A DNA stretch of 58,314 bases from Candidatus Micrarchaeota archaeon (GTDB lineage: Archaea > Micrarchaeota > Micrarchaeia > Anstonellales > Bilamarchaeaceae): assembly GCA_040754495.1 (NCBI GenBank), contig JBFMCO010000014.1:1-58314 (forward strand). The letters run 5' to 3'. The translations under genes were made by a program, and so were the position numbers. Below, piece by piece: positions 188-49,568 of the stretch (position 1 is the first letter of the stretch; every line of letters starts with the position of its first letter). The notes under the pieces were generated by a model. It was given only the letters and a program-made list of their open reading frames with translations. It was not told the DNA's origin and searched no databases.

Positions 188-328
188 CTACTTCAGGAAC
201 TGCCCCGGGTTCTCTCTGAAAGCCCATTGGCAGCTGGGAGAACAGAAAAAATACGCTTTGCCCTTGTAGCTCTCTTTTACCGCCTTCTTTTCGTCAACTT
301 CCATACCGCAAACTACGTCCTTTGCCAA
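188..328 (-). CDS. YHS-domain metal-binding microprotein (46 aa; not in ORF track)
   Basis: Manual translation from TTG: MAKDVVCGMEVDEKKAVKESYKGKAYFFCSPSCQWAFRENPGQFLK, matching YHS D-x-VCGM...Y-x-FCS-x-x-C...F...P; abuts upstream stop. Confidence 0.85.
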   Translation of the reverse strand: MAKDVVCGMEVDEKKAVKESYKGKAYFFCSPSCQWAFRENPGQFLK

Positions 329-329
329 T

Positions 330-1451
330 TCAACCACCTTCACCGAACAGCATCTCGTGGGCATTGAGTCCGAGATTGAAGAGCAGTACGCTCCATAAGA
401 GGAATACGGCGGCTGCTATCAAAGCCTCTTTGCGCTGGCCGTCCGTTTTTGCCTTCCTGTAGAAGACCCCAGCCACGCCTGCCGTGAGCAGCAGGTTCAT
501 AAGGACAGCATATTCGCTCAACGGTATTTTCCCTTCTATCTCTTCTATCCCTTCGATATCCGCCTCGCCTATCATCTGTCCGCCAAGTCTCATGAAGGCG
601 TAGTTCAGGCCTTCATGGAAGCCTCCGCCCTCATACCAGAGGTGGCCGAAAACGCCGTTGAAAAATATGAACGCCCCGAGCAAGATGAGTGCCCATGCGG
701 TTGCCCTCTCGACGCGGTCCCTGCCCATTCTTATTATGTCGACCGAATTGACCCCTATCACGCCAAGTATTACCATGAAGATTATGGGCGTTATCCTGCC
801 GATGGCGTTCATCGCCATGAGGACTGCCCCCTGGACCGCGTCCCCGCTCGTCGCCGCGAATGTAAGCAGCACATACGTCACGGGATTGGGGCACCCTATG
901 CCGGCATTCCCGAGAAGGAGGCCAAGCACGAAGACTTTTATGTACTCCGACCGCTCCTGCACGAATTTAGGCATGCTTACGTAGACAGGCGCGAGTTCGA
1001 ATCCTATGAGCTTGAGTTCGGATAATCCGAAGATGAATGCTGCCACGCCTGCAAGAGAATACATCACCCGTGTTGCCGTGTCAAGGCCGAGAAACTCCCC
1101 CACGACCGCGATTGCCGCGCCATAGATGGAAAGCGTTATGGTGAGTCCGAGGCCGAAGACGAGCGCCATCTTTATCCCCTTGCGCCATCCGACCAGTATG
1201 CTCATCGGTACGATGACGAAGACCAGCGGGAGGGTGCACGGAAGAAGAATGTTGGAGACGCCGCCAGCGTAAGATAACGCAAGCGTCGCGGTCGCTTCGG
1301 GCGTTGTCGCCAGATAGACGAGCGAAATGAGTATTATGGAAAAAAGGACGAAGGCTGCGGCTACGAGATAGACCCTTGCCCTCTTTTCGCTCTCGCTGAG
1401 TCCGGCAGAGCGCTCCGGAGCTGCAGCCTCTTTCTGCCTTCGCGCAGCCAT
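330..1451 (-). CDS. CcdA/DsbD transmembrane-domain protein
   Basis: Multi-TM; two membrane Cys-Pro motifs LLPCTLP and GIGCPNP. Confidence 0.8.
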   Translation of the reverse strand: MAARRQKEAAAPERSAGLSESEKRARVYLVAAAFVLFSIILISLVYLATTPEATATLALSYAGGVSNILLPCTLPLVFVIVPMSILVGWRKGIKMALVFGLGLTITLSIYGAAIAVVGEFLGLDTATRVMYSLAGVAAFIFGLSELKLIGFELAPVYVSMPKFVQERSEYIKVFVLGLLLGNAGIGCPNPVTYVLLTFAATSGDAVQGAVLMAMNAIGRITPIIFMVILGVIGVNSVDIIRMGRDRVERATAWALILLGAFIFFNGVFGHLWYEGGGFHEGLNYAFMRLGGQMIGEADIEGIEEIEGKIPLSEYAVLMNLLLTAGVAGVFYRKAKTDGQRKEALIAAAVFLLWSVLLFNLGLNAHEMLFGEGG

Positions 1452-1452
1452 T

Positions 1453-1728
1453 TTACCTCTCCTTGCCGAGCGTGTTCCATATCAGCGCGAACAGGGCCCC
1501 GAAGAACGCTCCTGAAACGAAGGCGAGCACGGTTCCCACGACAAGATTGGCTGCGTCGAGAGGCAGAGCCGTGGCCGCCACGCCGCCTATGTGGTGCACC
1601 GTCAGGGCATACCCTATAATCCCCCCTCCGGTCAGGGCCACAAGGACATTCCACGCAAGATGTCCTGTTGCAAAGGTAAGGCCAAGCGCAACCGCAGCCT
1701 GCTTCACGTCTAATCTCAAATCCATCAC
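1453..1728 (-). CDS. Small membrane protein with intramembrane His (DUF5676-like)
   Basis: 91 aa, hydrophobic helices, GHLAW and HH motifs, tightly packed in operon. Confidence 0.65.
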   Translation of the reverse strand: MMDLRLDVKQAAVALGLTFATGHLAWNVLVALTGGGIIGYALTVHHIGGVAATALPLDAANLVVGTVLAFVSGAFFGALFALIWNTLGKER

Positions 1729-1759
1729 CCCACACGGTCTTCTTCATCTATCCTTATTA

Positions 1760-2989
1760 TCAAACCCCGCAGCCTCCGCCCGGAATGAGTACCGGAGGGA
1801 AGCCCTCCAGCTTCTTCCTCGTGTTCTGGTAGCCGGTGTAGCTCGAATAATTCGCGGAAAGAAGTTCCCTCGCGCCTACGCTCTCCCAGCTCACGTTCTG
1901 ATATCCGAGATAAGCAGCCGTCTCTATATACGACTGGGGGAACCAGTAGCTGTTGGCTGTCAGCAAGGCATCGTACATCTCGTCCTCGCTCGCGTTCTGG
2001 TATGCCATCCACTCGAGGAGGCCGAGGGCCGCCATGCCGTGGTTGCAGTCCGGGAAGGAAGTCGGGTTGTTGCAGCAGGGGCGGTAGGTGCTGTTCGCGA
2101 CGCTTTCCACGAACTCCTGCTGCCTCGCGTCGAGCACGAGCAGGTCCGCGCCGTTATACAGCTCCCGGCCCCTTTTCTCGCCAAGCGGCCATCCTGCCGT
2201 GCTTGCCATGTTGTTCACGGACGCATCGCCGATTTTGCCCGACACGCCGCCCAGCACCGGGTTCCTGTTAGCCAGGCCGAAGGCCCAGAAGACGTTGAGG
2301 ACGAAGTAGGAGTTGTTCCTGTCCATCATGATGGCGGAATCGCTCCCATTCACGAGTATCCCCATCTGTTCCGGGGTGAGCGGCCTGCCGTTGAACGCCA
2401 TGCGCTCCTCGAATTTCGACAGGTTTATTGCCCCGCTGGCAAGCGTCCTCGGGCCGACGTCGTTCCACCGCACCGGCAGGACAATGCCCCCGGAGGGTAT
2501 TATCTTTTCGGCAAGCGCGTTGGCAGAAGCGTTCGCGTCATCCGCCGGAGCCGCGGGCGATGCGTTCTGCGAGGCGTTTTGGGGCTGCGGTCCAGTCTGG
2601 ATGCCGGCGCCCTCCGTATCACGGTATGAGCCGATGCCGTCCATCACGTTGTACACGTTCGTATATCCGAGGTCGGCGAGCTTCTGGGAAGCATCCGCGC
2701 TCATCCTTCCGGTCCTGCAATAGACGACTATCTTCGCGTCCCGCTGCTGCGGCAGCTTGTCGAGGTTCTGCCCTATCGCGTCATATGGTATGAAGGCGTC
2801 CGTGCCGTTCAGGTGCTCCTGAACCTCCGGCACGTGGACGTCGAGGAGGAAAAAGTCCTTCTCTTCCATCATTCCCTGCAGCGTGGACTCGGTGATATTC
2901 GTGTATGTGGCGTTCCCAGGGCCCGGCTCTTTCGCCGTGCAACCCAAGACCGTAAGAAGCAATAGCATTGCCGCAATCGGGGCTTTCAT
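1760..2989 (-). CDS. Lipoprotein: rhodanese domain fused to Cys/His-rich domain, ends GGGCGV
   Basis: Lipobox VLGC; rhodanese LLDV..P.E and active-site loop YCRTGRMS; PCCNN...DCNHGMA. Confidence 0.8.
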   Translation of the reverse strand: MKAPIAAMLLLLTVLGCTAKEPGPGNATYTNITESTLQGMMEEKDFFLLDVHVPEVQEHLNGTDAFIPYDAIGQNLDKLPQQRDAKIVVYCRTGRMSADASQKLADLGYTNVYNVMDGIGSYRDTEGAGIQTGPQPQNASQNASPAAPADDANASANALAEKIIPSGGIVLPVRWNDVGPRTLASGAINLSKFEERMAFNGRPLTPEQMGILVNGSDSAIMMDRNNSYFVLNVFWAFGLANRNPVLGGVSGKIGDASVNNMASTAGWPLGEKRGRELYNGADLLVLDARQQEFVESVANSTYRPCCNNPTSFPDCNHGMAALGLLEWMAYQNASEDEMYDALLTANSYWFPQSYIETAAYLGYQNVSWESVGARELLSANYSSYTGYQNTRKKLEGFPPVLIPGGGCGV

Positions 2990-2990
2990 G

Positions 2991-3116
2991 TCATCTTCCC
3001 AATATGAAACCTACGGCAAGCAATATCAACATTCCGAATGCGACAACCTGGACCCAGTTGATGCCTCCGCCCTCCTGTTTTCCTTTTCCATGCCCGCTAT
3101 CTCCGCAACAACCCAT
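2991..3116 (-). CDS. 41-aa membrane microprotein MGCCGDSGHG... (not in ORF track)
   Basis: GAGGTGA RBS, ATG 3116, stop abuts next ATG; CC motif then one TM helix. Confidence 0.7.
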   Translation of the reverse strand: MGCCGDSGHGKGKQEGGGINWVQVVAFGMLILLAVGFILGR

Positions 3117-3134
3117 GTAATCACCTCTTTTGGC

Positions 3135-3293
3135 CTATATCCCGAAGAAAGTGAAGCCCGGGTGCATCACCTTCATCATCGCTATGTAGGCCGCGATGAA
3201 GACCCCTATCCAGAAAATGTTCTCTATCCACGGCCACCACCAGCGGGTTGCCGGTTTCCGGCCTCCGGTTTCCGGTTTAGGTTCTAATGGCAT
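3135..3293 (-). CDS. 52-aa membrane microprotein with heptamer-repeat-encoded N-terminus
   Basis: ATG 3293 overlaps end of upstream gene; MPLEPKPETGGRKPATRWWWPW then TM helix. Confidence 0.5.
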   Translation of the reverse strand: MPLEPKPETGGRKPATRWWWPWIENIFWIGVFIAAYIAMMKVMHPGFTFFGI

Positions 3294-3481
3294 TTTTTCC
3301 CTCCGAAGGCCATCATGGCCACATGGCTCCCGACGCAGATGAGCGTCGCGAGCGGAAAGAGCCACCAGCCGCTTATCCCGGCAAGCTGGAAGGCCAGTAT
3401 CACCAGCACCGGCAGCGCGCAGCACACCGCCATCATGGCGAAATGGTTTTTCCTAATCGAGTCCCATAGTTTGGATAGCAA
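3284..3481 (-). CDS. Small 2-TM Cys/His protein (DUF2933-like)
   Basis: NH..MM..CC..P and C..SH..MM..GGKKCH motifs. Confidence 0.7.
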   Translation of the reverse strand: MLSKLWDSIRKNHFAMMAVCCALPVLVILAFQLAGISGWWLFPLATLICVGSHVAMMAFGGKKCH

Positions 3482-3485
3482 TCCA

Positions 3486-4091
3486 TCACCCGAAATTTCT
3501 CTCTACCAGCGCGTAGATATAGACGGACGCGGCCGCCCCTGCAAGCATGCCGGTTGCAAAGCGCACCGGATTCGTGCTCTCCCAGAACTCAAGAAGCTGG
3601 CCCGTCCCATCGACCGCAAGCGGCAGTATCGCGAGCAGAAGGAAGGCGACGTGGGGGACGAATGGCTTCTTCCATACGAAAGGCAGGGCAAGGCCGGCCA
3701 GCAGCATGGACAGATATATCCCGATGTTCCTCGTGTCGTTCGGGAACTTGTAGCCGGCAACATCCCCATAGAGCACCTTTTCAGCCCGGTTCAGGCCTAT
3801 CTGCTCGCGCGAGTAGGCGAAGACACCGTCCCAGGCGCGCCTCGCATTGGTGAACTCCGTGCTTATCACGGCACCCTCCCCTTTCTGTATGCAGTCCCCG
3901 ACCCAGTGCTCCGTGCCGTCGTAGAAGACACAGCTCGAGCGGTATATCCACTGGTGGCAGGTCGGTGCGTAGAGGTTGTAGCTCAGGGATGCCAGCTCCC
4001 GTGGCCCGTGGAAGGCGAGGAGCGGCGTCATTGCTATCGTTCCGACAATCGCAAGCATGACGGATAGGTAGAGCAGATAAACCTTGTTCAC
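3486..4091 (-). CDS. DUF2085-family membrane protein
   Basis: CHQ...RS, R..GIY, LP...DG..Q and N..RF.TG motifs. Confidence 0.75.
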   Translation of the reverse strand: MNKVYLLYLSVMLAIVGTIAMTPLLAFHGPRELASLSYNLYAPTCHQWIYRSSCVFYDGTEHWVGDCIQKGEGAVISTEFTNARRAWDGVFAYSREQIGLNRAEKVLYGDVAGYKFPNDTRNIGIYLSMLLAGLALPFVWKKPFVPHVAFLLLAILPLAVDGTGQLLEFWESTNPVRFATGMLAGAAASVYIYALVERNFG

Positions 4092-4095
4092 CGCT

Positions 4096-4389
4096 TCACC
4101 TTTGGAAGTTGGACAGGTCCTGGCCGACCGCCTGCTTGAATTTCACCGGGTTCACGTACTTGTAGCATTCCTGGAACCTGTCAGGGTGGTGGCTCAGGTG
4201 CTGGAGGTTGCTCGGGTCGTTGATATCCCCGCACTCCGGCGGCGGCGAGCCCAAGGCAATCGCCGGCCCTGGCTGCCCTGCGCCCTGGTTCTGCGCCGCA
4301 GCCGGCGGTGCCAGGAACGAAAGGAAGGCCAACGACAGCAGCGCCCCTGCCGCCACGAGGACGGCTCCGTACAATATTTTTTCATCCAT
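4096..4389 (-). CDS. Secreted/membrane-anchored hypothetical with C...HLSHHP...C motif
   Basis: N-terminal hydrophobic helix; operon spacing of 4 nt on both sides. Confidence 0.7.
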   Translation of the reverse strand: MDEKILYGAVLVAAGALLSLAFLSFLAPPAAAQNQGAGQPGPAIALGSPPPECGDINDPSNLQHLSHHPDRFQECYKYVNPVKFKQAVGQDLSNFQR

Positions 4390-4393
4390 GTTA

Positions 4394-5158
4394 TCACATC
4401 CCGATGCCCCTCCAGGGAATCGCCCGATAGAGAAGGCTTACGAACGAAAGGTACTGGCCGCTCAAAAGGAGCAGGCCCATCACTATGAATATCGCGCCGA
4501 CCGCGAGGCGGACCGCCCGCTGGTGGCGCTGGAGCAGCTTCAGGCTTTCCATAGTGCGCGAGAAGAACAGCGATGCCAGAAGGAAGGAAAGCCCGAGGCC
4601 TGCCGAGAACGCCAGCATGATGAGCCCGCCCGCAAAGGTGTCCTGCGTTGAGGCCGCGAGCATGAGCGTGGGGAAGAGCGTCGGGGATATGCAGTGCGAA
4701 CAGACGAGGGCGAAGATGGCCCCGACCAGGAAGACGCCTGCGTAGGAGAGCGCGCCGTCCTCCCCGCGCCACCTTTCCGTGGCCTTCTGCAGCTTCTCAT
4801 CATCCATCATGCCGCCAAAGCGCCACAGGACGTCCTTGAGCAGGCCTAGATAATGCAGCCCGAGTATGACGAACAGGACCCCTGCGAGCAGCGACGTTAT
4901 GCCGAAAAACGCCGGCATTGCCCCGGCAAGGGCCGCGGCCGCCGCTCCCACTGCCGTGAAGACCAGCGTGAAGGCCAGCACGAAGACGAGCGTCTTAGCA
5001 AAAAGCTGGCGCCTGACCGGCGCAGAGCCGCCGTCGCGCAGCAGCGCATCGAAGCTGAAGCCCGTGATAGTCGTAAGATAGACTATTATCATGGGTATGA
5101 TGCAGGGCGATATGAACGAAACGACGCCGGTCAGGAACGGCAGCGCAAGCTCCATCAC
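4394..5158 (-). CDS. ccdA: Cytochrome c biogenesis CcdA-family protein
   Basis: GVVSFISPCIIP and CSHCISPTL motifs, about 6-7 TM. Confidence 0.85.
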   Translation of the reverse strand: MMELALPFLTGVVSFISPCIIPMIIVYLTTITGFSFDALLRDGGSAPVRRQLFAKTLVFVLAFTLVFTAVGAAAAALAGAMPAFFGITSLLAGVLFVILGLHYLGLLKDVLWRFGGMMDDEKLQKATERWRGEDGALSYAGVFLVGAIFALVCSHCISPTLFPTLMLAASTQDTFAGGLIMLAFSAGLGLSFLLASLFFSRTMESLKLLQRHQRAVRLAVGAIFIVMGLLLLSGQYLSFVSLLYRAIPWRGIGM

Positions 5159-5886
5159 ATCGTCCCTCCGAACAGTATGTAGAGCGCGAAGAGCACCATG
5201 AGCAGGCCCATTCCGAGCTTGAAGTTGCGCCGGTTGTCCTTCTCGGCCTTCTCGAGCCTCTCGAGAACCCGCTCGTCAGACGAGACCACGAGCGCCAGGA
5301 TGAGGGGCAGCACGAACATGAGGTTATAAAGTCCCAGGAGCCCCAGTCCTGCCACGTCCAGCCCCTTCGAGCTAATCAGCGTGATTATCGCCACGTAGAG
5401 CCCCCCTACGCACGGGAAGGCGCAGAGGCCGACGAGTATGCCCGCGATGAACGTGGCGAACATGGTTCCTTTCTCCAGGAAACGCGAGAGATACGGCTTG
5501 CTGAACTCCGGGATTTTGAGCGTGCTCGTGCCCATCAGCCCGTCCTTGACGGAAACGGCCCCCACCGCAAGCAAAAGAACCGCGCCGGCTTTCGCCATGA
5601 AGTGCGGCTCGAAGACCGAGACGGCCTTCATTATCCCGAGCCCTATCCCGAAATAGGCGATGAACACGCCCAGGATGTAGAGGAGGCCGAATGCCAGTAT
5701 CTGCGTCCTCGTGCGCTTGACCGAGAGCAGGAACGCGATGAAGAAAAGGAGCACGGTGAAGCCGCAGGGATGTATGCCGTCGAGGAATCCCGTCACTATG
5801 ACCAGGCCGACCATGTTCTGCGAAAGATACAGATATGCCGCTGCTACGATAAGGAAAAGGAAAAGAAGCAGGTGGGACGCTTTCAT
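5155..5886 (-). CDS. CcdA-like membrane protein
   Basis: GFLDGIHPCGF and FPCVGGLY motifs, multi-TM. Confidence 0.8.
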   Translation of the reverse strand: MKASHLLLFLFLIVAAAYLYLSQNMVGLVIVTGFLDGIHPCGFTVLLFFIAFLLSVKRTRTQILAFGLLYILGVFIAYFGIGLGIMKAVSVFEPHFMAKAGAVLLLAVGAVSVKDGLMGTSTLKIPEFSKPYLSRFLEKGTMFATFIAGILVGLCAFPCVGGLYVAIITLISSKGLDVAGLGLLGLYNLMFVLPLILALVVSSDERVLERLEKAEKDNRRNFKLGMGLLMVLFALYILFGGTM

Positions 5887-6441
5887 TCAGTTCCCTCTGA
5901 GCGAGTAGGCCACGAAGCCTCCTGCAAGGACCAGCAATGAGAGCGGGAGGATGAGGCCGAGCGAGCCGGCTCCGCTTCCCGCGCCCCCTCCAGCCGCCGC
6001 GCAGTCCGCAATCGGCTGGTCTATGGGGCAGGCGTGCTCCTTCCCGTCCATGAGCATCTTGTAGCCAGTAGGCTTGTCCATGCTGTCCTGCGTCACCACC
6101 ACCTGGCCGCCCGGGGCCTTCAGGTAACCCTCAATAAGCTCCGGCGGCACGTGGCCCTCGAAGAGGTACTTGTCGTCCACAAGCACGAGGAGGTGGCCCT
6201 GCATCCCCAGCGGGACTCCGAAGCGCTCCTGTATGGCTGCGACTTCGGTGCGGGCCTGCGCGTCGGACATGTAATCCTTTATGGCCACGTCGCTGTAGCC
6301 GTTGCGCTCAAGCATATCCATGAGGTCGTCCATGTACATCACGCAGTGCCCGCATCCCTCGTTCTTGTAGATGAGCACCCCTCCGGCGAAAACGCCGGGA
6401 AGCAGGAGGAGCAGAAGGAGCGCTGCCGCCCTCCTCAGCAT
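5887..6441 (-). CDS. Exported CxxC thioredoxin-fold/DUF411-like protein with C-terminal TM anchor
   Basis: Signal peptide, GCGHC, YLFEGHVP, C-terminal hydrophobic helix. Confidence 0.7.
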   Translation of the reverse strand: MLRRAAALLLLLLLPGVFAGGVLIYKNEGCGHCVMYMDDLMDMLERNGYSDVAIKDYMSDAQARTEVAAIQERFGVPLGMQGHLLVLVDDKYLFEGHVPPELIEGYLKAPGGQVVVTQDSMDKPTGYKMLMDGKEHACPIDQPIADCAAAGGGAGSGAGSLGLILPLSLLVLAGGFVAYSLRGN

Positions 6442-6638
6442 CCTCCCACCATCCCGGCGCCGCTGCCTGCAGATTTTGGTGGGATCGCAGGCTGCGCGTT
6501 CTGGCCATTTGCTGGCGCGTTAGTCTGTGCCGGCGCATTCTGGGCGAGCTTCACCAGCCCGTACAGCTGGAACGCCTGCACAAGGGTGACGATGACGAGT
6601 ATGGCGGCCACCAGCACCATGAGCATCTCCCTGTTCAT
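6435..6638 (-). CDS. Membrane-anchored MVGGC-terminal protein 1
   Basis: TM helix, Q-A-F-Q-L, A/P/Q/N linker, ends GMVGGC. Confidence 0.8.
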   Translation of the reverse strand: MNREMLMVLVAAILVIVTLVQAFQLYGLVKLAQNAPAQTNAPANGQNAQPAIPPKSAGSGAGMVGGC

Positions 6639-6775
6639 GCCGCATCACCCTCGCCGTCGCCGGCACCTTTGCCTTTCTTGTCGTCCATTCTCTCCTCGCA
6701 ATGATAGCAGTAGTCGCCCGGCTCGTTGCCGCAGCAGGCGAACACTATCTTGCCGCAATCCTTGCATTTCTTCAT
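6635..6775 (-). CDS. 46-aa Cys-rich putative Zn-binding microprotein (not in ORF track)
   Basis: MKKCKDCGKIVFACCGNEPGDYCYHCEERMDDKK...; GAGG RBS; ATGA overlap with downstream gene. Confidence 0.75.
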   Translation of the reverse strand: MKKCKDCGKIVFACCGNEPGDYCYHCEERMDDKKGKGAGDGEGDAA

Positions 6776-6776
6776 T

Positions 6777-6989
6777 CTAACAACCTCCTACCATTCCGCT
6801 GCCTGCCGGCTTCGCGGCTGCTGTGGCGGGCTGGTCGTGGTGGCCTGCCATCGGGTCAACCGCCTGTGCCAGCGCCCCGGCTTGCGGACCAGACACCTGT
6901 CCAACCAGGCCGGAAAGCTGGTAAGCCTGCACGACCGCGACTACGAGCAGTATTGACACGACTGCCAATACCAGGAATTCCTTGTCCAT
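6777..6989 (-). CDS. Membrane-anchored MVGGC-terminal protein 2
   Basis: Paralog of 6435-6638; ends GMVGGC. Confidence 0.8.
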   Translation of the reverse strand: MDKEFLVLAVVSILLVVAVVQAYQLSGLVGQVSGPQAGALAQAVDPMAGHHDQPATAAAKPAGSGMVGGC

Positions 6990-7005
6990 CCTTCATCACC
7001 TCTCC

Positions 7006-7788
7006 CTAGCATCCTCCTACCATCGCACCGCCGCTACCGCCAGCCGAGGCTGCGCTCTCTATGCCGCGGTACTTGTTGGAGGCGAGATTGACGTAGTTCA
7101 GCTCGACGCCCTGCGACTTGAGGACGGCCGCCTTCTGGGCATGGACGCCCGGGAAGAACAGCACCTTCCACTTGCCGAGCTCCTCGAGGATCTGGTCATC
7201 CGTGTACTCGGAGCCGTGGTTCTTGATGAGGTACTTGGCAAGCCCCCTCATGGCGTAGCTGTGCGAGCATCCGCAGGCCGGCGCGCCGGTCGCGAACACA
7301 AGCGTCTTCGCGCCGCAGCAGTATTCGCACGCTATGCTCGTCCCTATCTTCACGTAGCGCTGCAGGTCGGCGCCCTGCAGGTCTATCTGCTGGTCGTATA
7401 TGGCGAGCTTGTCTATCGTGCTGTCCGCAAGCTGCGGGTTCGTCTCGGAGACATCGTCGTACCTGATGCCGAGCTCTGAGCCGTATATGGCCGGGACGCC
7501 GGTTGGGCGGACATCCACCGCCTGCAGCGAAGCCCCTGACGGCTGCGCCTGGGTTGAAGGCGCCGCCTGCGCGGCCGCCACTCCCCCGGCCTTCACCAGC
7601 GGCATCGAGTATAGGGTCGCAATCTGGAACTGGTTGAACGCGGCCACGACCACCAGCACGGCAAGAAGCCCTATCAGTATCGTATGGTACTGGGGCCCTT
7701 CCGGAGCCGTCCCCCCTGCCTGCGCGGCCGGCCCCTCGCCGGCCTGCCTTTTCCGGGAATCCTCCACGGTCCTCCTTTCATCCATCAT
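7006..7788 (-). CDS. Membrane-anchored Cys-rich protein, MVGGC-terminal protein 3
   Basis: Same TM/FNQFQ start as the small paralogs; CEYCC...CGCSH..AMRGL domain; ends AMVGGC. Confidence 0.8.
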   Translation of the reverse strand: MMDERRTVEDSRKRQAGEGPAAQAGGTAPEGPQYHTILIGLLAVLVVVAAFNQFQIATLYSMPLVKAGGVAAAQAAPSTQAQPSGASLQAVDVRPTGVPAIYGSELGIRYDDVSETNPQLADSTIDKLAIYDQQIDLQGADLQRYVKIGTSIACEYCCGAKTLVFATGAPACGCSHSYAMRGLAKYLIKNHGSEYTDDQILEELGKWKVLFFPGVHAQKAAVLKSQGVELNYVNLASNKYRGIESAASAGGSGGAMVGGC

Positions 7789-7804
7789 GTCACCTTTTTC
7801 TTTT

Positions 7805-7878
7805 TTGTAAGTTTTACAATGCGTGTAATACTAAACCAATCTATTTTTAAACATTTGTAAGCCTTACATTTATTGTAA
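7805..7878. promoter_or_regulatory. Divergent promoter with two TGTAA-N3-TTACA-N5-TGTAA operator-like sites
   Basis: TTGTAAGTTTTACAATGCGTGTAA (7805-7828) and TTGTAAGCCTTACATTTATTGTAA (7855-7878) between operon and repressor; TACA/TGTA half-sites typical of BlaI/MecI/CopY. Confidence 0.65.
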
Positions 7879-7885
7879 AGGTTGA

Positions 7886-8245
7886 TTGGTTATGATTGCA
7901 AAGGGAGTTCTGGAGGAGCTGAGCCCGCTGGAAGCCGAGGTCCTCAAAGCCCTGCTTCCGGGCAGGAAGATGAAGGTGAGGGACGTCCATGCCTCGGTCT
8001 CGAAGAGGCAGAAGGTAGTCCTCACCAGCGTCGCGGTCATGCTGGACCGGCTTCATGGGAAGCGGCTCGTTGACCGCGAGATAGAGACGTGCCGCGGAGG
8101 CACGAGGTACATATACTTCCTGAGGAAAAGCCCGGCGGAAATAGAAGAGGAGTATCTGAAGGGCCAGGTGGACGGTATTATAAGCAAGTTCGGGGATAAG
8201 GCTATAGCGTACTTCCACAAGAGGTTCAGCGAAGGGAAAGCATGA
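7886..8245 (+). CDS. BlaI/MecI/CopY-family transcriptional repressor
   Basis: LSPLEAEVLK.L, TSV..MLDRL..K.LV.R winged helix, ...FGD.A.AYF dimerisation tail. Confidence 0.85.
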   Translation: MVMIAKGVLEELSPLEAEVLKALLPGRKMKVRDVHASVSKRQKVVLTSVAVMLDRLHGKRLVDREIETCRGGTRYIYFLRKSPAEIEEEYLKGQVDGIISKFGDKAIAYFHKRFSEGKA

Positions 8246-8961
8246 AGGAGCTCGAATGCGTCCTCGGGCCGTGCCTTGAGGCATTCCTGAAGAATCCGCT
8301 CGGGCTAGCCTCGCTCCTCATCTTCGGCGCCCTCGCCGCTGTCTCGCTGTTCGTCATAATCCGGCGGGAGGGCATGAGGTCAAGGATACGCTGGTCATAC
8401 CCCCTTGTCTTCAGCCTCCTCTTCATGGTGGCCTATTTCGCATTCACCATGATGTGCCATGACAATCTGCCCTTCTGCACCGAGCATGCGCTCATGTACG
8501 CCATACCAGCCGCAGTAATGGGCTCGTTCCTTTTCGGCTACATATTAATGCCGAACCTTTATCTGGCGTGGAACAAAGCCGTCATTTCGGAGGCACTTTC
8601 CGCGAAGCTTCCCTCCCGCGTCCCGGTATATCTCGCTGACAAGGGCAAGCCCTTCGCATTCTCCTACGGGGGCTATAGGAAATGGATAGTCATCTCCCAG
8701 GGGATGCTGGACATACTGAGCGAGAAGGAGCTCGAGGCGGTGCTCCTGCACGAATACGGCCACCTCGCGAACAACTCCTCCTTCTACAAGACGAGCGGCT
8801 GGATATACTCCAAGATCCCCCTCCTCCATGCCTTCCTCGACGGACGCTCCCTCGAGGATGAGGAGGAGCTGAAGGCGGACATGTTCGCGGCCAAACAGCA
8901 GGGGACAAGGAGATTCCTGAACTCCGCGAAGAGGAAAATGGAGAGATACTACTCCTCCTAG
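8242..8961 (+). CDS. BlaR1-like M56/M48 membrane metallopeptidase
   Basis: N-terminal TMs, AVLLHEYGH (HEXXH), EELKAD; overlaps repressor stop. Confidence 0.85.
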   Translation: MKELECVLGPCLEAFLKNPLGLASLLIFGALAAVSLFVIIRREGMRSRIRWSYPLVFSLLFMVAYFAFTMMCHDNLPFCTEHALMYAIPAAVMGSFLFGYILMPNLYLAWNKAVISEALSAKLPSRVPVYLADKGKPFAFSYGGYRKWIVISQGMLDILSEKELEAVLLHEYGHLANNSSFYKTSGWIYSKIPLLHAFLDGRSLEDEEELKADMFAAKQQGTRRFLNSAKRKMERYYSS

Positions 8962-10148
8962 GCCCCGAAAAGGTTCTTCTTCAGCGTTTCCATGACCGAA
9001 TCCGGGTTGGGCCCGATTTTTATCAGCGTGGTCTGCCCCCGGACGCCCTTCCCGCTCGGGGTGGTCACAATCAGGCCGAGCGTCTCCAAATCGTTCAGGT
9101 ACTCCTTGTACCAGCGCGAGCTGCGCGGCCTCTTGCGCGCCATCCTGCAGGATTTCTCGTATTCCTCGTAGACCTCGCCCGAGAACAGGAATCCGCCATC
9201 CACCCCTTCCAGCCTCGAATACCTGCTTCCCTGCTTGGTGATGCTGGCAATCGAATAGAGGACGAGCTGGTGCATCTCCGGAAGGGTGCTGATGGTCTCG
9301 ACCGTGAGGTCCCGCTCCACCATCTTCCTCGCCGCCTCGACGTCCTCGTCGCTCACCTTGCTCTTGCCGGACTGCTGGGCCATCTCGCCGGCCTTGTTGA
9401 GGAGCTTGAGCGCATAGCGCGCGTCCCCGCTCTCCTGGCTCGTAATCGCCGCGGCCAAATTTATCGCGGAAGGCTCGACCACGCCGGCCGCGAATCCCTC
9501 GGCCGCCCTCTGCTCGAGAATCCTCTGGAGCTGCTCGGCGGTATATGGCTGGAATATCATCTCGGTCTCATACAGGCTGCTCTTGCTGCGGGGGTCGAGC
9601 GAGTCCTTGAACGAGAGCTTGTTCGATATGCCAATCATGCTCACGCCGCCCTTCTTCATCTCGTCGTTCGAGCGGGTGAGGGTATAGACCAGCTCGTCCA
9701 GGTCCTTCACCATGTCCACTTCGTCGAGGACTACTATCAGCTGCTCGCCCATACCGGCAACCTCGACCAGCTTCTCGTAAAGGAACGGCAGGCCGAATCC
9801 CGCCTTCTCCAGCTCCGGCACATATCCCTTCAGTATCCTCTGCAGTATCCTGTACCTTGAATTGTATATCCTGCAATTAACGTAGTGGATGCTCGCAGGG
9901 CCGGCCTTCTGGGCGGCTACGAACTCCTCCATCACGCGCTTTGTGGTGCAGGTCTTTCCGGTCCCGGTCTTGCCGTAGATTATCAGGTTGCGCGGCTTCT
10001 GCCCCTTGAGGGCCGGGAATATCACGGACATTATCTCGTGCATCTGCCCCTCGCGGTAGGGGAGGTCCTTGGGAACATAATGCGGTGAGAGGACCGAGAG
10101 GTCCCGGAAGATGGATTTCTCTGAAAGGATTTTGTCAAAAGAAGCCAT
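8958..10148 (-). CDS. cdc6: Orc1/Cdc6 replication initiator
   Basis: Walker A GKTGTGKT, Walker B VLDEVD, GDARYAL, C-terminal wHTH; start moved to MASFDK. Confidence 0.95.
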   Translation of the reverse strand: MASFDKILSEKSIFRDLSVLSPHYVPKDLPYREGQMHEIMSVIFPALKGQKPRNLIIYGKTGTGKTCTTKRVMEEFVAAQKAGPASIHYVNCRIYNSRYRILQRILKGYVPELEKAGFGLPFLYEKLVEVAGMGEQLIVVLDEVDMVKDLDELVYTLTRSNDEMKKGGVSMIGISNKLSFKDSLDPRSKSSLYETEMIFQPYTAEQLQRILEQRAAEGFAAGVVEPSAINLAAAITSQESGDARYALKLLNKAGEMAQQSGKSKVSDEDVEAARKMVERDLTVETISTLPEMHQLVLYSIASITKQGSRYSRLEGVDGGFLFSGEVYEEYEKSCRMARKRPRSSRWYKEYLNDLETLGLIVTTPSGKGVRGQTTLIKIGPNPDSVMETLKKNLFGA

Positions 10149-10278
10149 GGGCAGAATTAGCCAGCAAATGTTTATATGAATAGTGGAAGTTTGGGCTGCC
10201 ACGGCGGCACGGAAAGGAATTAGGCTTTAAAACTTTCCCGTCCAGAATGGAAAATACTACTTTATAGGAGGCGAAAAA

Positions 10279-10695
10279 ATGATTGTCGGTGAAAGGATAC
10301 TCGAAGTCAGCGGGAACAAAGTGCCCAAGGGAAGCATCAAGGGCCTGAACATCAACATAAGCCTCGAGGACGTCAAGGTGTCGGAAGACAACAAGGACAA
10401 CATCGAAATCACCTACGTCTACACGGCCAACTACCAGGACAGCGTCGGCATGATAAAGATAAAGGGCGTCCTTCTCGCGAAGGAGGAAGCCAGGCTCAGC
10501 AAGGACATCGTGGAGTCCTGGAAGAAGAGCAAGAAGGTCCCGGACGAATACGCGACGGTCGTCCTCAGCGCGGTCAATTACAGCGGCAGCGCGAACGGCA
10601 CGCTCCTCGCGCGCGTCCTCAACCTCACCGCCCCGCTCATCCCGCCGAAAATCCAGCTCTCGAAGGCCACGGACGGCGGAAAGAAGTCGTCCTGA
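10279..10695 (+). CDS. Conserved archaeal hypothetical protein (possible SecB-like fold)
   Basis: GGAGG RBS, typical codon usage, beta-rich N-terminus and P-rich end; family by recollection only. Confidence 0.6.
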   Translation: MIVGERILEVSGNKVPKGSIKGLNINISLEDVKVSEDNKDNIEITYVYTANYQDSVGMIKIKGVLLAKEEARLSKDIVESWKKSKKVPDEYATVVLSAVNYSGSANGTLLARVLNLTAPLIPPKIQLSKATDGGKKSS

Positions 10696-10697
10696 GC

Positions 10698-11780
10698 TTA
10701 CGGCACAATATCCGCGCTTCCCTTGAGGGCGAAGAACACCGCCTGGTGGCGGGGAAGCTCTTTTATCTCATCCTTTTTGAACGGCCCCACCGTCTCTTCC
10801 ATCCCTATTGCAGGCACGTCTTCGGTGAATCTCACCTTCAGCCCGCCGCCCCCGGCGAGCGGGGCATCCTTCCACGGGTCGAAGGAGGAGATGTCGTCCG
10901 CGATTTTCGCGACAAGCCCGGTTTCTCCGTGGATGGAGTTCGGCACCCGGATCAGCTTGCTCAAGTCCTGCGTCACGCCGACGTCCGTATTCACCGAGCC
11001 TACGGGCAGGCTTTTCGCGACGAGCGACAGCCTCTCCCGGAGGTCGTTCAGGTTGAGCGACGTCTTGCTCCAGTTGCCCTCGTTTATGCCGCCGATGAAG
11101 AACTCCCTCTCCTTCCCGTTCGTGAATTTCCTCGAGAGGGCGGAGGGCTTCTCCTGCAGGAGCCTGATGGCGCCTCTTGCGAACCGGCCCCGGTAGCCGC
11201 CCTCGTCGGGGCGGGGCCCGAGCAGCTTCTTTCCTTCGAAAGCGAGGAACTGGAGGTAGTCCAGCCCCTGGCCCATCACGTAATCCACGAGCTCGCGCCT
11301 CTCGTCCCCCCCCAGCGGAAGATACGCCGGGTCCCGCACGTGCACGTGGTAGCCCCTGTTGCCCGAGAACACCACGGCCACGTGCTCCTTCCTTATCCCG
11401 AAATCGTTCAGGATGAAGTCCTCGACGAGCCGCACGGCGTCCTCCTTGACCTCGCCAAGCTTCGCGTAAGCCCCGTATTTTCCCTCGGCGTGTATGTCCA
11501 GGTCGAAGACGAGGTCGGCCCCCTTCCATGCCTTCTTCTGCATAGGCGTCGCGCCGGGGAACTCGTAGTATGCCGTCGAGTGCGAGACGAAGAGGGGGGT
11601 GTTCGTGACAAGATATGCCCTGAACTCCCCGAGGCTCGCGAAATTCAGGTGCCTCGCGTCTATCTTCTTCTGGTTGCCTATCCCGAATTCCCTGCGCTCC
11701 ACGTTCGGGATGCGGAACTCCGCCCTCTCGTAGTATGATGCGAAGATTTTCTTCACGAAAGACAGCCCTGCCAGGTCCAT
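10698..11780 (-). CDS. priS: DNA primase small (catalytic) subunit
   Basis: DLVFDLD, SGNRGYHVH, D.....KLIRVP.SIH. Confidence 0.95.
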   Translation of the reverse strand: MDLAGLSFVKKIFASYYERAEFRIPNVERREFGIGNQKKIDARHLNFASLGEFRAYLVTNTPLFVSHSTAYYEFPGATPMQKKAWKGADLVFDLDIHAEGKYGAYAKLGEVKEDAVRLVEDFILNDFGIRKEHVAVVFSGNRGYHVHVRDPAYLPLGGDERRELVDYVMGQGLDYLQFLAFEGKKLLGPRPDEGGYRGRFARGAIRLLQEKPSALSRKFTNGKEREFFIGGINEGNWSKTSLNLNDLRERLSLVAKSLPVGSVNTDVGVTQDLSKLIRVPNSIHGETGLVAKIADDISSFDPWKDAPLAGGGGLKVRFTEDVPAIGMEETVGPFKKDEIKELPRHQAVFFALKGSADIVP

Positions 11781-11784
11781 GCGC

Positions 11785-12726
11785 TCACCTTGCCTTTATC
11801 GCCTTCTTCCTCGCCTCGTCCAGCGTGTGCCAGTTCATCGGGTGGCCTATCCTGCAGACGGCGCAGCAGAGGCCGTAGGTCATCACCGTAGCGCAGGAGG
11901 GCACGTTGTAGCCTTTCTTCCTGATGTGGCTCACCTGGTAGGCGGTTATCTTTTCGCTGAAATCGGGCAGGTCCGAGTAGAGCTTCACTACGTCCTCCTC
12001 GCTCATCCCGGCTGCAAGCAGGTACGTGGCAAGATACCATCTAGCATGGTGCGGCAGGTTCTCGTGCTTCTTCATCTCATCCAGCAGCCTTGCGACGCAC
12101 GGCGGGTGGTCTCCTGCCTTCACCGTTATCTTCACGCTGCTTTTCGGCATCTGGGCGAGCAGCCTCGCCCCGGCCGCCTTTATCAGCTCGGGCGGGTCCT
12201 TCACCAGCGGGATGGCCTCTATGTGCTTCTTCACGGCCTCCTCTATGAGCCTCCTCTTCTCGCTGGCCTTAATCTCGACCATGCCGCGGTATATCCTGCG
12301 GTTTATGAGGCGGTAATCCGGGTTCCTCAGGCTGTACCGGACGTACGTAGGGATGTTGACGAAAAGGGTGCCGTTCCTCGTTGCCGTCGCTATCCCGAAC
12401 TGCGCGGCCACCCTGTCCACGGCCGCCTCGTCATCGCGGTCCAGGCAGTCCCTCACCCTCTTGGATTCGTTGACCGCGAACGTGTTCGTGAGGAAGTTGT
12501 TGCGCATGTGGCCGAGTATCATCCTCGCCGCTGCGAACGAGGCGATGTCCTCCAACTTGTCGGACTCGTGGAGGAGCATCTTCGCCGTCTTGTCCCCGTT
12601 CAGGGCCTTTTTTATGCGCTCGAGCCCCATCTCCACCATCCTCTCGGTGAGGCTCATCCCTTCCAGGGCGGCCCTCGCGCTGTCGCTGAAAGGATACTTC
12701 ATGGCGAAATCTAGGCCCTCTCCCAT
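11785..12726 (-). CDS. priL: DNA primase large subunit
   Basis: YPF start, HPPC, L.H.ARWYL, YQV.HI, PSC...GLC Fe-S cysteines. Confidence 0.9.
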   Translation of the reverse strand: MGEGLDFAMKYPFSDSARAALEGMSLTERMVEMGLERIKKALNGDKTAKMLLHESDKLEDIASFAAARMILGHMRNNFLTNTFAVNESKRVRDCLDRDDEAAVDRVAAQFGIATATRNGTLFVNIPTYVRYSLRNPDYRLINRRIYRGMVEIKASEKRRLIEEAVKKHIEAIPLVKDPPELIKAAGARLLAQMPKSSVKITVKAGDHPPCVARLLDEMKKHENLPHHARWYLATYLLAAGMSEEDVVKLYSDLPDFSEKITAYQVSHIRKKGYNVPSCATVMTYGLCCAVCRIGHPMNWHTLDEARKKAIKAR

Positions 12727-47542: not shown

Positions 47543-47611
47543 GTCGCTTAAGTTTTTAAACTGAGTATTAATAGTAAATACTTAGTTTCATAAGTAGTGA
47601 AGGGGAATACG

Positions 47612-48475
47612 ATGTCTGACATAAAATTCGTCTTAACCGGTCTGGTTGTTGTCTGCTTGCTTCTTTTTGTCGGATGCACTTCGAAAGAGTCTGGCCCGCA
47701 GTTTGCAAAACCTGCTACGGATTCACAACCAACTGCTCCGACAAGTGCTCAGCCACAAGCTATAAACTGCGGGAATGGAGCCGTGGATTCGGGTGAAACG
47801 TGCTCTTCTTGCCCGACGGACGTACAATGTTCTGCTGGAATGGTTTGCTGCTCTGGGACATGTGCCAGACCTGTCTGTAATTCATCCGCTGACTGCGACG
47901 ACAACGACAAATCAACAGTGGATACCTGCCAAAATGCGGATAGTTGCGATGCAACGTGCTCACACAGTCAAATTACCTCATGCACGGATTCTGACGGAGT
48001 GTGCCCAGATGGCTGCAATGTTTTCAATGATAACGATTGCAAAGCACTGAGCCCAGGCACAGCGGCGGATTCGGGCAATTTGCAAATTAGCGTCTCCAAT
48101 CCGTATGTTCAAGTGTGCACGAGCGATTATTCAGAGGATAAGGACACGTATCTCGTTTTCGAAGTAAACGTGGAGAACAGAGGGACCAAAAAGGAGTATA
48201 TTTCCTCTATGGAGTTTTCAGCAGTTGATCCGAACCGAAAGCAATTCGATGGCTCAATACTATCGTACCCAACAGTATTCGGAGGGAACTGTGCAGACGC
48301 TAAAAACGACGCATTTAGCGGAGGGAATTTGCTCCCGGGTTCAAAGGATAATGGCAAGATATGGATTGAGTTGAGCAATACGGGCTCTTATTCCAAAGGC
48401 AAGTGGTATATCGTATACAAGCAAACATTCAGCCTGAAGGACTTGTACACAGTATACGAAACTCAGCTCAACTGA
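47612..48475 (+). CDS. Cys-rich surface lipoprotein with C-terminal DUF4352-like Ig domain
   Basis: Lipobox FVGC; CGNG...GETC, CDDND...VDTC, GVCP.GC...DNDC repeats; V.V.N.G...F..VD...KQF. Confidence 0.75.
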   Translation: MSDIKFVLTGLVVVCLLLFVGCTSKESGPQFAKPATDSQPTAPTSAQPQAINCGNGAVDSGETCSSCPTDVQCSAGMVCCSGTCARPVCNSSADCDDNDKSTVDTCQNADSCDATCSHSQITSCTDSDGVCPDGCNVFNDNDCKALSPGTAADSGNLQISVSNPYVQVCTSDYSEDKDTYLVFEVNVENRGTKKEYISSMEFSAVDPNRKQFDGSILSYPTVFGGNCADAKNDAFSGGNLLPGSKDNGKIWIELSNTGSYSKGKWYIVYKQTFSLKDLYTVYETQLN

Positions 48476-48497: not shown

Positions 48498-49442
48498 TTA
48501 CATTTTTTCCTGCATCCCCCTCACTTTTTCCAGAAGCCGCTCATCCTGCGCCCTCTCAATGCCCCCATAAAGCTCCTCCTTCTTCGTATGGATGTAAATC
48601 ATCGTTGTCTGGATGTTGGTATGCCGGGCAAACCTGCCAGCCAGCATGACGTTGCCGCCGTTCTTCCGGCAGAAGTTCGTGATGGCATAGTGCCTCAGGC
48701 TATGCGGACTGAGGCGAAACAGGGGTTTCGGATGAGCGCCTGCGCTGTAACCATAAATCTCAGCCAGCCCTGCCTTCTCTGCGTATCCGTGGAAAACGTT
48801 TCTCGCTGTTTCACGGGTTAAGTGGGATTCTATTTTCCGGGTCCTCCATCCATAAGCGAACGAAAAGAAAAGGAAGCCTTCTGCTTTGGCGATTTCCATC
48901 TCATAGGCAGCGATATACTGCAAGGTGGCATCGAACAGCTTTTCTGGAATCAGAAGATAGTCCGTTTTCCCGCTCTTTTCCGAGAAGATGCGCAGCTCGT
49001 GGGTTTTCAGGTTCAGGTCCTTGATGTTCATCCGTATGGCTTCCCCAATCCTGAGGCCGAGGATTGCCTGGAAGCTGAAAAGCAGGTGCGCTTTTGGATC
49101 GTCTATAACGCTGAAAAACCGCTCCAATTCTTCATCCGTAAATCCTTTGTTCATTGAGCCGTACTTCGGTCTTTTTGAGCGAAGGAAGCGCCTTTTCCTC
49201 GCTTCTGACAGGATAGTGATTGCCTTTACCAGATTCCACTTTGTGAGATGACGCCCGTAGTGTTCCAGTTCCTGCCTGATTTCCGGCCAATTCCGGGTTA
49301 ACTCCTTGGAGATTTCCCTTGCTGTTTTAACTAATTGTGCTTCGCCACAATCCAGAAACTGGGCACCCGACACGGAACACTGACGGGAAACCGGACACTG
49401 GCCACTGGAAACCGCTTCACCCCTCTCCGCAGGCCCAATTTT
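48498..49442 (-). CDS. Tyrosine recombinase/integrase C-terminal fragment (intC)
   Basis: GLRIGE (R), K, HSLRH (HxxR), ARHTN (H), TTMIY (Y). Confidence 0.92.
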   Translation of the reverse strand, partial: KIGPAERGEAVSSGQCPVSRQCSVSGAQFLDCGEAQLVKTAREISKELTRNWPEIRQELEHYGRHLTKWNLVKAITILSEARKRRFLRSKRPKYGSMNKGFTDEELERFFSVIDDPKAHLLFSFQAILGLRIGEAIRMNIKDLNLKTHELRIFSEKSGKTDYLLIPEKLFDATLQYIAAYEMEIAKAEGFLFFSFAYGWRTRKIESHLTRETARNVFHGYAEKAGLAEIYGYSAGAHPKPLFRLSPHSLRHYAITNFCRKNGGNVMLAGRFARHTNIQTTMIYIHTKKEELYGGIERAQDERLLEKVRGMQEKM

Positions 49443-49568
49443 CCTTCTTTTACCAGGTGCCAGCCCAAGCAAAGGCCCAGGGAAATTGGGAATAAAGTGA
49501 AATCGCCGCACGATTTCACGACAGGCCCAATTTTCCTTCTTTTACCAGGTGCCAGCCCAAGCAAAGGC
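49430..49568 (+). repeat. 47-bp direct repeat (49430-49476, 49522-49568), 92-bp period, starting with tRNA-Ile 3' end
   Basis: CAGGCCCAATTTTCCTTCTTTTACCAGGTGCCAGCCCAAGCAAAGGC twice. Confidence 0.9.

Follow-up and report, generated by a model that had tools for sequence, protein, structure and literature searches.

Why should three neighbouring genes, encoding proteins of 260, 70 and 67 residues, all stop directly after the residues MVGGC? The question is raised by a 58,314-nt stretch of DNA (hereafter the window), which is the whole of contig JBFMCO010000014.1 in assembly GCA_040754495.1 of a Candidatus Micrarchaeota archaeon; the genome comprises 1.63 Mb in 72 contigs and is 80% complete, a completeness that bounds all genome-wide negatives given below. 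An initial annotation had noticed the shared end, together with a common transmembrane (TM) helix motif, and had proposed a thiol or sulfur-carrier system of the cell envelope. The finding is real, and no described family accounts for it. Its core is a gene pair, in which one or two single-pass proteins are encoded after a tethered protein with a new all-alpha multi-Cys domain.

Translation of the open reading frames (ORFs) bore out the three MVGGC-COOH ends, all encoded on the minus strand, as well as the shared TM helix motif. Throughout the genome, the pattern ATGGTNGGNGGNTGY followed by a stop codon occurs at three places, all of them in these three genes, and the reversed control pattern at none. 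At synonymous sites the three tails are written with unlike codons (GTG/GTA, GGA/GGT, TGC/TGT), and their stops are TGA, TAG and TAG. This comparison was extended to 82 related loci (with labels such as L005), whose genes were called and clustered and from which iterated profiles were built starting from the window proteins. Across 61 of these loci, the tail codons of the large and the small gene agreed at 1.74 of 4 wobble positions within a locus versus 1.40 of 4 between loci, so the identity of the tails is held at the protein level, as the annotation had supposed, and gene conversion is ruled out as its source. The tail is thus a real, selected feature of tethered extracytoplasmic proteins.

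Each tailed protein has one N-terminal TM helix, which is followed by QAFQ in the 67-residue protein, QAYQ in the 70-residue protein and NQFQ in the 260-residue protein. Of 88 small relatives, 61 have a Q-x-x-Q motif; in the large family the Asn of NQxQ (N52) hardly varies. Applying the positive-inside rule, the N-in/C-out orientation prevailed by 59 to 5 for the small proteins and by 24 to 1 for the large ones, so the N-termini are predicted to lie inside and the arms outside the cell. In the linkers of the small proteins Ser, Ala and Gly are the commonest residues, then Thr, Gln, Ile, Asn and Pro. As read from their sequences, the tailed proteins would therefore each expose a disordered arm that ends [M/Q]-V-G-G-Cys-COOH.

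The 260-residue protein belongs to a large family with more than 1,832 homologues; all those with a named source come from DPANN archaea and are called hypothetical, and none carries a Pfam domain. Among the best 120 homologues, 119 end in GGC, 116 of these in [MQ]VGGC. An exhaustive profile search yielded 312 clusters at 50% identity, and 124 of the best 149 cluster representatives have Cys as last residue, their tails following [MQWF]-[VA]-G-[GADSE]-C, while many representatives without a terminal Cys break off within the conserved domain and resemble fragments. When one genome per species was scanned, the family was present in 381 genomes. Pfam and NCBIfam gave no family for the three tailed proteins, hmmscan gave none for 28 relatives either, and a literature search found no relevant paper on the MVGGC tail or on PCYCGC. 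This last family (PF13798) was tried as kin of the Cys-rich domain and rejected, given no hmmscan match and an hhalign probability of 0.8% against the true PF13798 members found in seven neighbourhoods.

Conservation in the large protein centres on a site of the form CEYCC...CGCxH (C154, E155, Y156, C157, C158, C172, G173, C174 and H176), and the family alignment adds G159, A160, S177 and the terminal VGGC to the invariant residues. AlphaFold2 (AF2) modelled the whole protein with a predicted local distance difference test score (pLDDT) of 83 and residues 88-260 with a pLDDT of 92 and a predicted template modelling score of 0.89; both models are all-alpha. At 77, the score of the final three residues exceeds that of the preceding linker (59), which hints at a docked tail in the modelled large protein. 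Foldseek found no match in the PDB for either model, a structure search of the ESM Atlas returned hypothetical proteins only, the Atlas feature search gave no usable match, and a sequence-profile search of the PDB gave chance-level rows only. Exhaustive structural alignment of both models with 48,161 chains left a single chain at Z≥5, the periplasmic domain of CcmH (2hl7_A), with Z of 6.0 and 6.2 (root-mean-square deviations of 3.0 and 2.7 Å over 76 and 75 of 82 residues), values below 8 and hence in the range where the tool warns that helical folds are unsafe; the next match scored 4.2 and 4.0. By range arithmetic, and in an hhalign alignment that is not significant, CEYC (154-157) falls opposite the CPKC of CcmH. 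Judged on these models, the relation to CcmH is one of structural likeness and not of membership: hmmscan gave no CcmH (PF03918) match at E≤10, and a search of the genome returned only noise in TM regions. A role in cytochrome c maturation was rejected, because neither the CcmF/CcsA family (PF01578) nor CcmH was found in the organism's own genome, itself 80% complete.

A search for fusions in the wider family returned a single partner, FKBP. In this protein (P0320, 456 residues) an FKBP-type prolyl isomerase is joined to the Cys-rich domain, and L005 has an FKBP gene close to the pair.

The second member of the pair, a tailed ORF of about 50-120 residues, lies directly downstream of the large gene in 72 of the 82 loci, and a third or fourth is present in 14. 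Large and small tails change together: at position -5 both proteins have Met in 79 pairs and both have Gln in 5, with no mixed pair, and in L091 all three tails carry Gln. On a domain tree built without the tail columns, Met and Gln switch about 14 times, so the joint change is recurrent. Such joint change would also be expected if one enzyme or pocket read both tails. On this reading, which the invariance of the motif at the very C-terminus, after linkers that are not otherwise related, would also fit, the tail carries nothing, and its Cys serves for lipidation or for cross-linking to the S-layer or a partner. We regard such a processing or attachment signal as improbable, since no conserved candidate transferase, sortase or archaeosortase was found in the 82 neighbourhoods; nothing follows the Cys, whereas known C-terminal sorting signals have a TM helix after the motif, and the [GADSE] variants before the Cys leave only Gly-x-Cys in common. 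The short ORFs, with variable middles and a conserved end, could likewise be taken for precursors of secreted or modified peptides like those that are ribosomally synthesised and post-translationally modified, the TM segment serving as leader. To this we give hardly any credence, because the 82 neighbourhoods hold no conserved modifying enzyme; moreover, the same tail sits on a folded protein of 260 residues and the conserved part is five residues only.

Six large proteins (L028, L031, L033, L045, L054, L070) form a subfamily that stops at ...YRGIEN and has no Cys tail. The adjacent small gene keeps MVGGC in at least L031 and L033, which suggests that the arm is able to act in trans; L028 is without any tailed ORF. 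A predicted complex of residues 30-260 of the large protein with the 70-residue partner had a median score of 0.09, a value that bears neither way on binding.

The linkers of the small partners are not all plain. WTxxEKMxYE[HM]HGxxPxR occurs in about 29 of the 88 (for example in L004, L010, L014, L018 and L066, the last with two copies), a second motif, ETYxxMMARMHPDQV, occurs in others, and the window's 70-residue protein shares a DPMAGHH linker with L091 and L051. Neither of the first two motifs is in Pfam, and the small partners that bear them have no Pfam or NCBIfam match. In those loci with two small genes that were inspected (L004, L014, L018, L059 and the window), one linker bears a motif and the other is plain. 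Several small proteins, as well as the window's 41-residue protein, also carry a cytoplasmic CC motif at the N-terminus. Clusters of Met and His are typical of Cu(I) sites, and such linker motifs are not needed by an electron or sulfur carrier.

We then asked which genes accompany the pair, counting neighbours within 6 kb of it; 31 of the 82 loci have 6 kb on both sides (full flanks). The commonest neighbours are a two-TM winged-helix regulator of the DUF7343 family whose outer loop reads Cys...CP[AV]H (61 of 82), a membrane protein starting HCPLC (51), a helical protein many of whose listed members end DCCKE (38) and thioredoxin/DsbA genes (30), followed by DUF411-like proteins (26; CGCC in 18 members and CGHC in 5), DUF5676 (24), YHS (22), the family of the window's 97-residue protein (21), P1B ATPases (18), CcdA (14), HMA (13), BlaI plus M48 (8, mostly in loci of Micrarchaeota type) and the rhodanese fusion (about 7). 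At least one of P1B ATPase, YHS, HMA and DUF411-like lies near 56 of the 82 loci, and near 26 of the 31 with full flanks. CPC, NX6YNX4P and MxxSS are present in each of the 23 neighbouring P1B ATPases, and we take this set to be the Cu(I)/Ag(I) (P1B-1) signature of the P1B classification. By these counts copper genes are the common theme, and CcdA and rhodanese are accessories of one lineage, not the core that the annotation had made of them. It had also tied the tails to CcdA, rhodanese or metal genes as company; tailed proteins do occur without the first two, but most keep metal genes nearby. Of the sulfur, disulfide or metal shuttle that it envisaged, the metal option agrees with the copper neighbours and the sulfur-carrier option does not find support.

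Three of these neighbours deserve mention in their own right. The loop between the two TM helices of the DUF7343 regulator holds two Cys and one His (LC...M..CP[AV]H, as in L073:9425-9907), and this protein, which takes the place of BlaI/M48 in most lineages, is a candidate one-component envelope sensor. The AHCPLC motif of the CPLC membrane protein (as in L051:9108-9587) follows a signal-like segment; the protein is not found in the genome under study, which has three CcdA genes instead, and it occurs together with CcdA in only 5 loci. Finally, at L005:14458-15831 an HMA domain is fused to DsbD_TM/CcdA, adjoining both a tailed pair and a CopZ/CopA pair.

The sulfur-carrier model had also drawn on the rhodanese fusion of the window, whose GGGCGV end was confirmed by translation. 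Its rhodanese domain (PF00581) scores 36.9 bits against a cut-off of 22.2, and the CRTGRMS loop is kept in L007 and L042; an N-terminal rhodanese with intact catalytic loop is present in three of five fusion relatives. In the C-terminal half, YRPCCNNPTSFPDCNHG and a Cys near the end are invariant, and the tails read G-x-C-[GF]-[AV]. This half matched the large family in hhalign (74% probability, E 2.8e-5) over the CC, C-x-H and following helices, and an iterated profile seeded by the fusion gathered 74 tailed proteins, which makes the fusion a paralogue of the tailed domain. A secreted rhodanese with intact loop, fused to a paralogous domain that ends GGGCGV, and a Gly-Gly-Cys arm that recalls the GGCGG of SoxY, would fit a scheme in which rhodanese loads the terminal Cys with persulfide, to be handed by the arm to partner enzymes or used in precipitating metals. 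We consider this scheme very improbable, and the SoxY-like model of the annotation is not upheld: the fusion is confined to the few loci counted above, no sulfur-oxidation enzyme occurs in any of the 82 neighbourhoods, the tailed fold is all-alpha with no SoxY match in Pfam, and SoxY was not found in the 80%-complete genome, where SoxZ and SoxB were not searched. For the rhodanese itself, persulfide loading and single-Cys redox chemistry are both candidate roles.

Taken together, these observations are best read as a DPANN envelope module for copper stress, in which terminal-Cys arms and a CcmH-like multi-Cys domain handle copper and/or thiols at the surface of the cell, a reading to which we assign a probability of about one half. 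Cu(I) would be bound by the terminal thiolate, which lies beside the free carboxylate; four residues before it stands Met or Gln, and many of the linkers hold His/Met motifs. The arm might then hand Cu(I) to the CxxCC/CxCxH site of the CcmH-like domain, or swap a disulfide with it, and in this way the cell surface would capture copper or have its copper-oxidised thiols repaired. In the Micrarchaeota version the Cys residues would be kept reduced by three CcdA-type conduits and the CGHC CopG-like protein, the rhodanese-domain lipoprotein with its second copy of the domain (tail GGGCGV) being a lineage-specific addition. More tentatively, and at rather less than an even chance, the module could represent a new kind of extracytoplasmic carrier, specific to ultra-small DPANN archaea and governed by Cys-loop membrane sensors of a new kind, in which the terminal Cys of the single-pass proteins docks in trans into the CcmH-like site and passes on Cu(I) or electrons.

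Several observations weigh against the proposal of copper and/or thiol handling, whose mechanism is one that we infer. An ATPase lies within 6 kb in only the 18 loci given above, and the genome's own copper ATPases are outside the operon, on contigs C71 (of CPC type and with HMA; next to it are a DUF7343 regulator at C71:24983-25465 and a Met/His-rich protein) and C10 (CPH type). The AF2 model does not let a metal site be identified. The likeness to CcmH, at Z of about 6, is below the safe level for helical folds, and hhalign against an enterobacterial CcmH alignment gave a probability of 1.4%, which is not significant. The window's CopG-like protein has CGHC and not CxCC, and at 17.5 bits it falls short of the PF04214 cut-off of 27. 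In L090, the closest relative (86% identity), the large and the first small tail have Gln and the second small tail has Met. Lastly, no domain residue was found to switch together with the Met/Gln position of the tail, the supported independent pairs being too few and none significant.

The main rival is a pure thiol-disulfide relay, in which the large protein would be a CcmH-type oxidoreductase and the terminal Cys residues swinging electron carriers. Reducing power would pass from CcdA here, and from the CPLC protein elsewhere, to oxidised surface proteins, and copper would be only the inducing stress, as in Scs. CcmH, the sole structural neighbour, is indeed a single-TM thiol oxidoreductase with a three-helix bundle and Cys25/Cys28 in the loop that joins helices 1 and 2; it acts downstream of CcdA/DsbD (PMC3884852). 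Thioredoxin/DsbA, CcdA, CPLC or DUF411-like genes lie near 70 of the 82 loci, one family member is fused to a folding catalyst (FKBP), and each of the three CcdA genes of the window retains both Cys. A relay of this kind would, however, have no use for the His/Met linker motifs or the Met/Gln tail position, its CxxC chemistry would not need five invariant Cys and one His, and sequence comparison gave no significant similarity to CcmH. We therefore hold it to be unlikely, while ranking it first among the alternatives to copper and/or thiol handling.

How the pair is embedded in the window is summarised in the table. Sixteen co-directional genes run from 7788 down to 188, many of them abutting or overlapping and with a largest gap of about 30 bases, and the repressor and protease genes read divergently from them; this gene order makes the cluster one operon under a divergent BlaI-like/M48 pair, in keeping with the BlaI/BlaR-like control that the annotation had proposed. 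Since the window is the whole contig, the operon may continue past base 1; in L013 only a small thioredoxin-like gene comes after YHS. Pfam and motifs also substantiated the three CcdA genes, the CGHC protein (its DUF411 match being below the cut-off), the Penicillinase_R repressor and the M48 peptidase that the annotation had named. All three CcdA genes pass the CcdA/DsbD_TM (PF02683) cut-off of 27.1 bits, two of them barely, and each has two membrane Cys in PC/CP contexts, one from the first helix and one from a helix further along. Pfam and NCBIfam hold no family for the operon proteins of 46, 97, 65, 52 and 41 residues. Evidence for copper in the window itself comes from the YHS gene and the DPMAGHH linker. 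For the 65-residue protein a MerF-like architecture may be suggested, the sequence match to MerF being weak (E 0.096).

Features of the operon and its control region in the window, in descending order of position
Feature	Position	Strand	Remarks
BlaR1-like M48 membrane metalloprotease, 239 residues	8242-8961	+	HEYGH; PF01435 41 bits
BlaI-family winged-helix repressor, 119 residues	7886-8245	+	one Cys, no CopY-type CxC; PF03965 39.1 bits
Second operator-like dyad	7856-7868	.	TGTAAGCCTTACA; 50 bp from first
Operator-like dyad	7806-7818	.	TGTAAGTTTTACA; in 97-bp divergent region
Large tailed protein, 260 residues	7006-7788	-	cytoplasmic N-terminus, TM helix ending NQFQ, low-confidence linker, Cys-rich all-alpha domain (~90-245), Gly/Ser linker, MVGGC-COOH
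Small tailed protein, 70 residues	6777-6989	-	TM helix with QAYQ, linker with His/Met motif DPMAGHHD, MVGGC-COOH
Cys-rich protein, 46 residues	6635-6775	-	CxxC...CC...CxxC; lies between the small tailed genes; conserved at this place in L090 and L091; no Pfam
Small tailed protein, 67 residues	6435-6638	-	TM helix with QAFQ, plain Ala/Pro/Gln/Asn linker, MVGGC-COOH
Secreted CGHC protein, distant CopG/DUF411-like	5887-6441	-	C-terminal TM anchor; PF04214 17.5 bits, below cut-off
CcdA-like membrane protein, 243 residues	5155-5886	-	DsbD_TM 27.5 bits; C41 HPC, C159 FPC
CcdA, 254 residues	4394-5158	-	DsbD_TM 67.2 bits; C19 SPC, C156
Secreted protein, 97 residues	4096-4389	-	ECGD...LQHLSHHPD..QEC (two Cys and His cluster); family in 21 of 82 loci; no Pfam
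DUF2085 membrane protein	3486-4091	-	PF09858, 59 bits
Two-TM protein, 65 residues	3284-3481	-	vicinal CC in TM1, ...GGKKCH end, relatives end GGCH; cluster hidden Markov model (HMM) E 2.6e-16
One-TM protein, ~52 residues	3135-3293	-	MPLEPK...MHPGFTFFGI; start inferred from relatives; homologous 46-residue genes in L008 and L013
Protein of 41 residues	2991-3116	-	MGCCG N-terminus, His/Gly-rich stretch, TM helix; kept in L006 and L013
Rhodanese fusion	1760-2989	-	lipobox-type signal (VLGC), rhodanese (loop CRTGRMS), Cys-rich domain paralogue (YRPCCNNPTSFPDCNHG), end GGGCGV
Two-TM protein, DUF5676-like, 91 residues	1453-1728	-	cluster HMM E 9.8e-7; cluster representative matches PF18926
CcdA/DsbD_2-like membrane protein, 373 residues	330-1451	-	27.2 and 27.4 bits; C72 LPC, C187 GCP
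YHS-domain protein, 58 residues	188-364	-	PF04945 57.7 bits; last gene before contig end; CcdA-YHS order also in L013

The divergent pair is of the BlaI/BlaR1 type, with a Penicillinase_R protein next to a membrane HExxH protease and with palindromic candidate operators, and the divergent position of BlaI is kept in L006-L009, L013, L090 and L091. The dyads TGTAAGTTTTACA and TGTAAGCCTTACA are the only two matches to TGTAA-N2-5-TTACA in the 58-kb window, and one or two dyads (spaced by about 50 bp if both are present) occur in the same region of L090, L007, L008, L013, L091, L006 and L009. The protease has the M48 domain only, and in place of the penicillin-binding sensor of BlaR1 it carries Cys/His loops, namely an N-terminal C-x4-C and the loop MMCHDNLPFCTEH between TM2 and TM3, which are predicted to face outward; C-x4-C and CH-x3-P-x-C are kept in the four listed relatives of Micrarchaeota type (L007, L008, L009 and L013) and are absent or different in other members of the cluster. 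In cyanobacteria, PetR/PetP combine a BlaI-family repressor with a BlaR1-family protease in a copper-dependent proteolysis (PMC7896320). With this precedent and the dyads, induction through the repressor and peptidase pair, as the annotation proposed, is supported in form, and the signal is what we infer. The repressor would sit on the two TGTAA-N3-TTACA dyads and would be removed once the Cys/His loop of the protease senses copper or thiol oxidation, as in PetR/PetP.

Outside the operon, the M48 gene is adjoined by genes for Orc1/Cdc6 (8958-10202) and the small (10698-11780) and large (11785-12726) subunits of primase, with an ORF of 138 residues without a Pfam family (10279-10695) between Orc1/Cdc6 and primase. 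Orc1/Cdc6 lies beside the M48 gene in L090 too, and a replication origin may be near. At 18966-21626 there is a P-type ATPase with a PEGL motif, which is not a heavy-metal pump. Between 46000 and 49600 the G+C content falls from about 0.60 to 0.50; this segment, with a gene of the phage integrase family (48498-49511, minus strand) and one for a DUF4352 protein (47597-48475), is probably an integrated element. Scans of the window for tRNA genes and with Rfam found nothing.

What is new from this window is the operon architecture of Micrarchaeota, the paralogy of the rhodanese fusion, the dyads, the sensor-like loops of the protease and the classes of linker motif. DPANN archaea are abundant, mostly uncultured and dependent on the cell surface for an episymbiotic life. 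Present in 381 species-level genomes and without a model in Pfam or NCBIfam, the module is among the most widespread unannotated conserved gene sets of this group. If the arm carries copper or thiols, a terminal Cys on a tether would be a new chemistry beside the metallochaperone and Dsb/Ccm toolkits. Our proposal, if true, would explain how exported Cu(I) is handled in organisms without an outer membrane, and would provide a second BlaI/BlaR1-type circuit, after PetR/PetP, that senses something other than beta-lactams. The proteins are small, and the proposed function is open to tests with peptides and one soluble domain.

Comparison with known systems places the module next to several of them. 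CopG (DUF411, PF04214), a copper-resistance protein of the periplasm in which Cys residues bridge a tetranuclear copper cluster (Hausrath et al. 2020, cited in PMC8872213), is represented by frequent, thioredoxin-like, Cys-rich extracytoplasmic proteins that are neighbours and not relatives of the tailed ones. The tailed proteins gave no match to HMA/CopZ (PF00403), and their fold is all-alpha. With CcmH/NrfF/CycL (PF03918; 2HL7) the large protein has one TM anchor in common and, by the models, may share a small extracytoplasmic helical bundle with a CxxC in the long loop after helix 1, but LRCxxC there stands against CEYCC plus CGCxH here (five Cys and one His), and only the tailed domain possesses an additional helical part at the N-terminus and the C-terminal Cys arm.

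The closest resemblance of the arm itself is to SoxY (PF13501), which also has a flexible C-terminal Gly-Gly-Cys arm that could carry a ligand on its thiol. In SoxY, Gly-Gly follows the Cys (the GGCGG arm), the fold is a beta-sandwich and SoxZ is the partner, whereas here the Cys of [MQ]VGGC ends the chain, the proteins are all-alpha or without a fold, and copper and thiol genes surround the pair. PetR/PetP resembles the control of the operon in joining a repressor to a membrane metalloprotease that lacks a penicillin-binding sensor and in its link with copper, but it governs the switch between plastocyanin and cytochrome c6, while an envelope operon with the dyad TGTAA-N3-TTACA is concerned here, and the likeness is not a claim of orthology. 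Finally, Scs and other DsbD-dependent pathways guard against copper with a membrane electron conduit and extracytoplasmic CxxC proteins. The module has the same combination of conduit and CxxC protein; it differs in that no ScsA-D homologues were identified and in that its proteins belong to new families with terminal-Cys arms.

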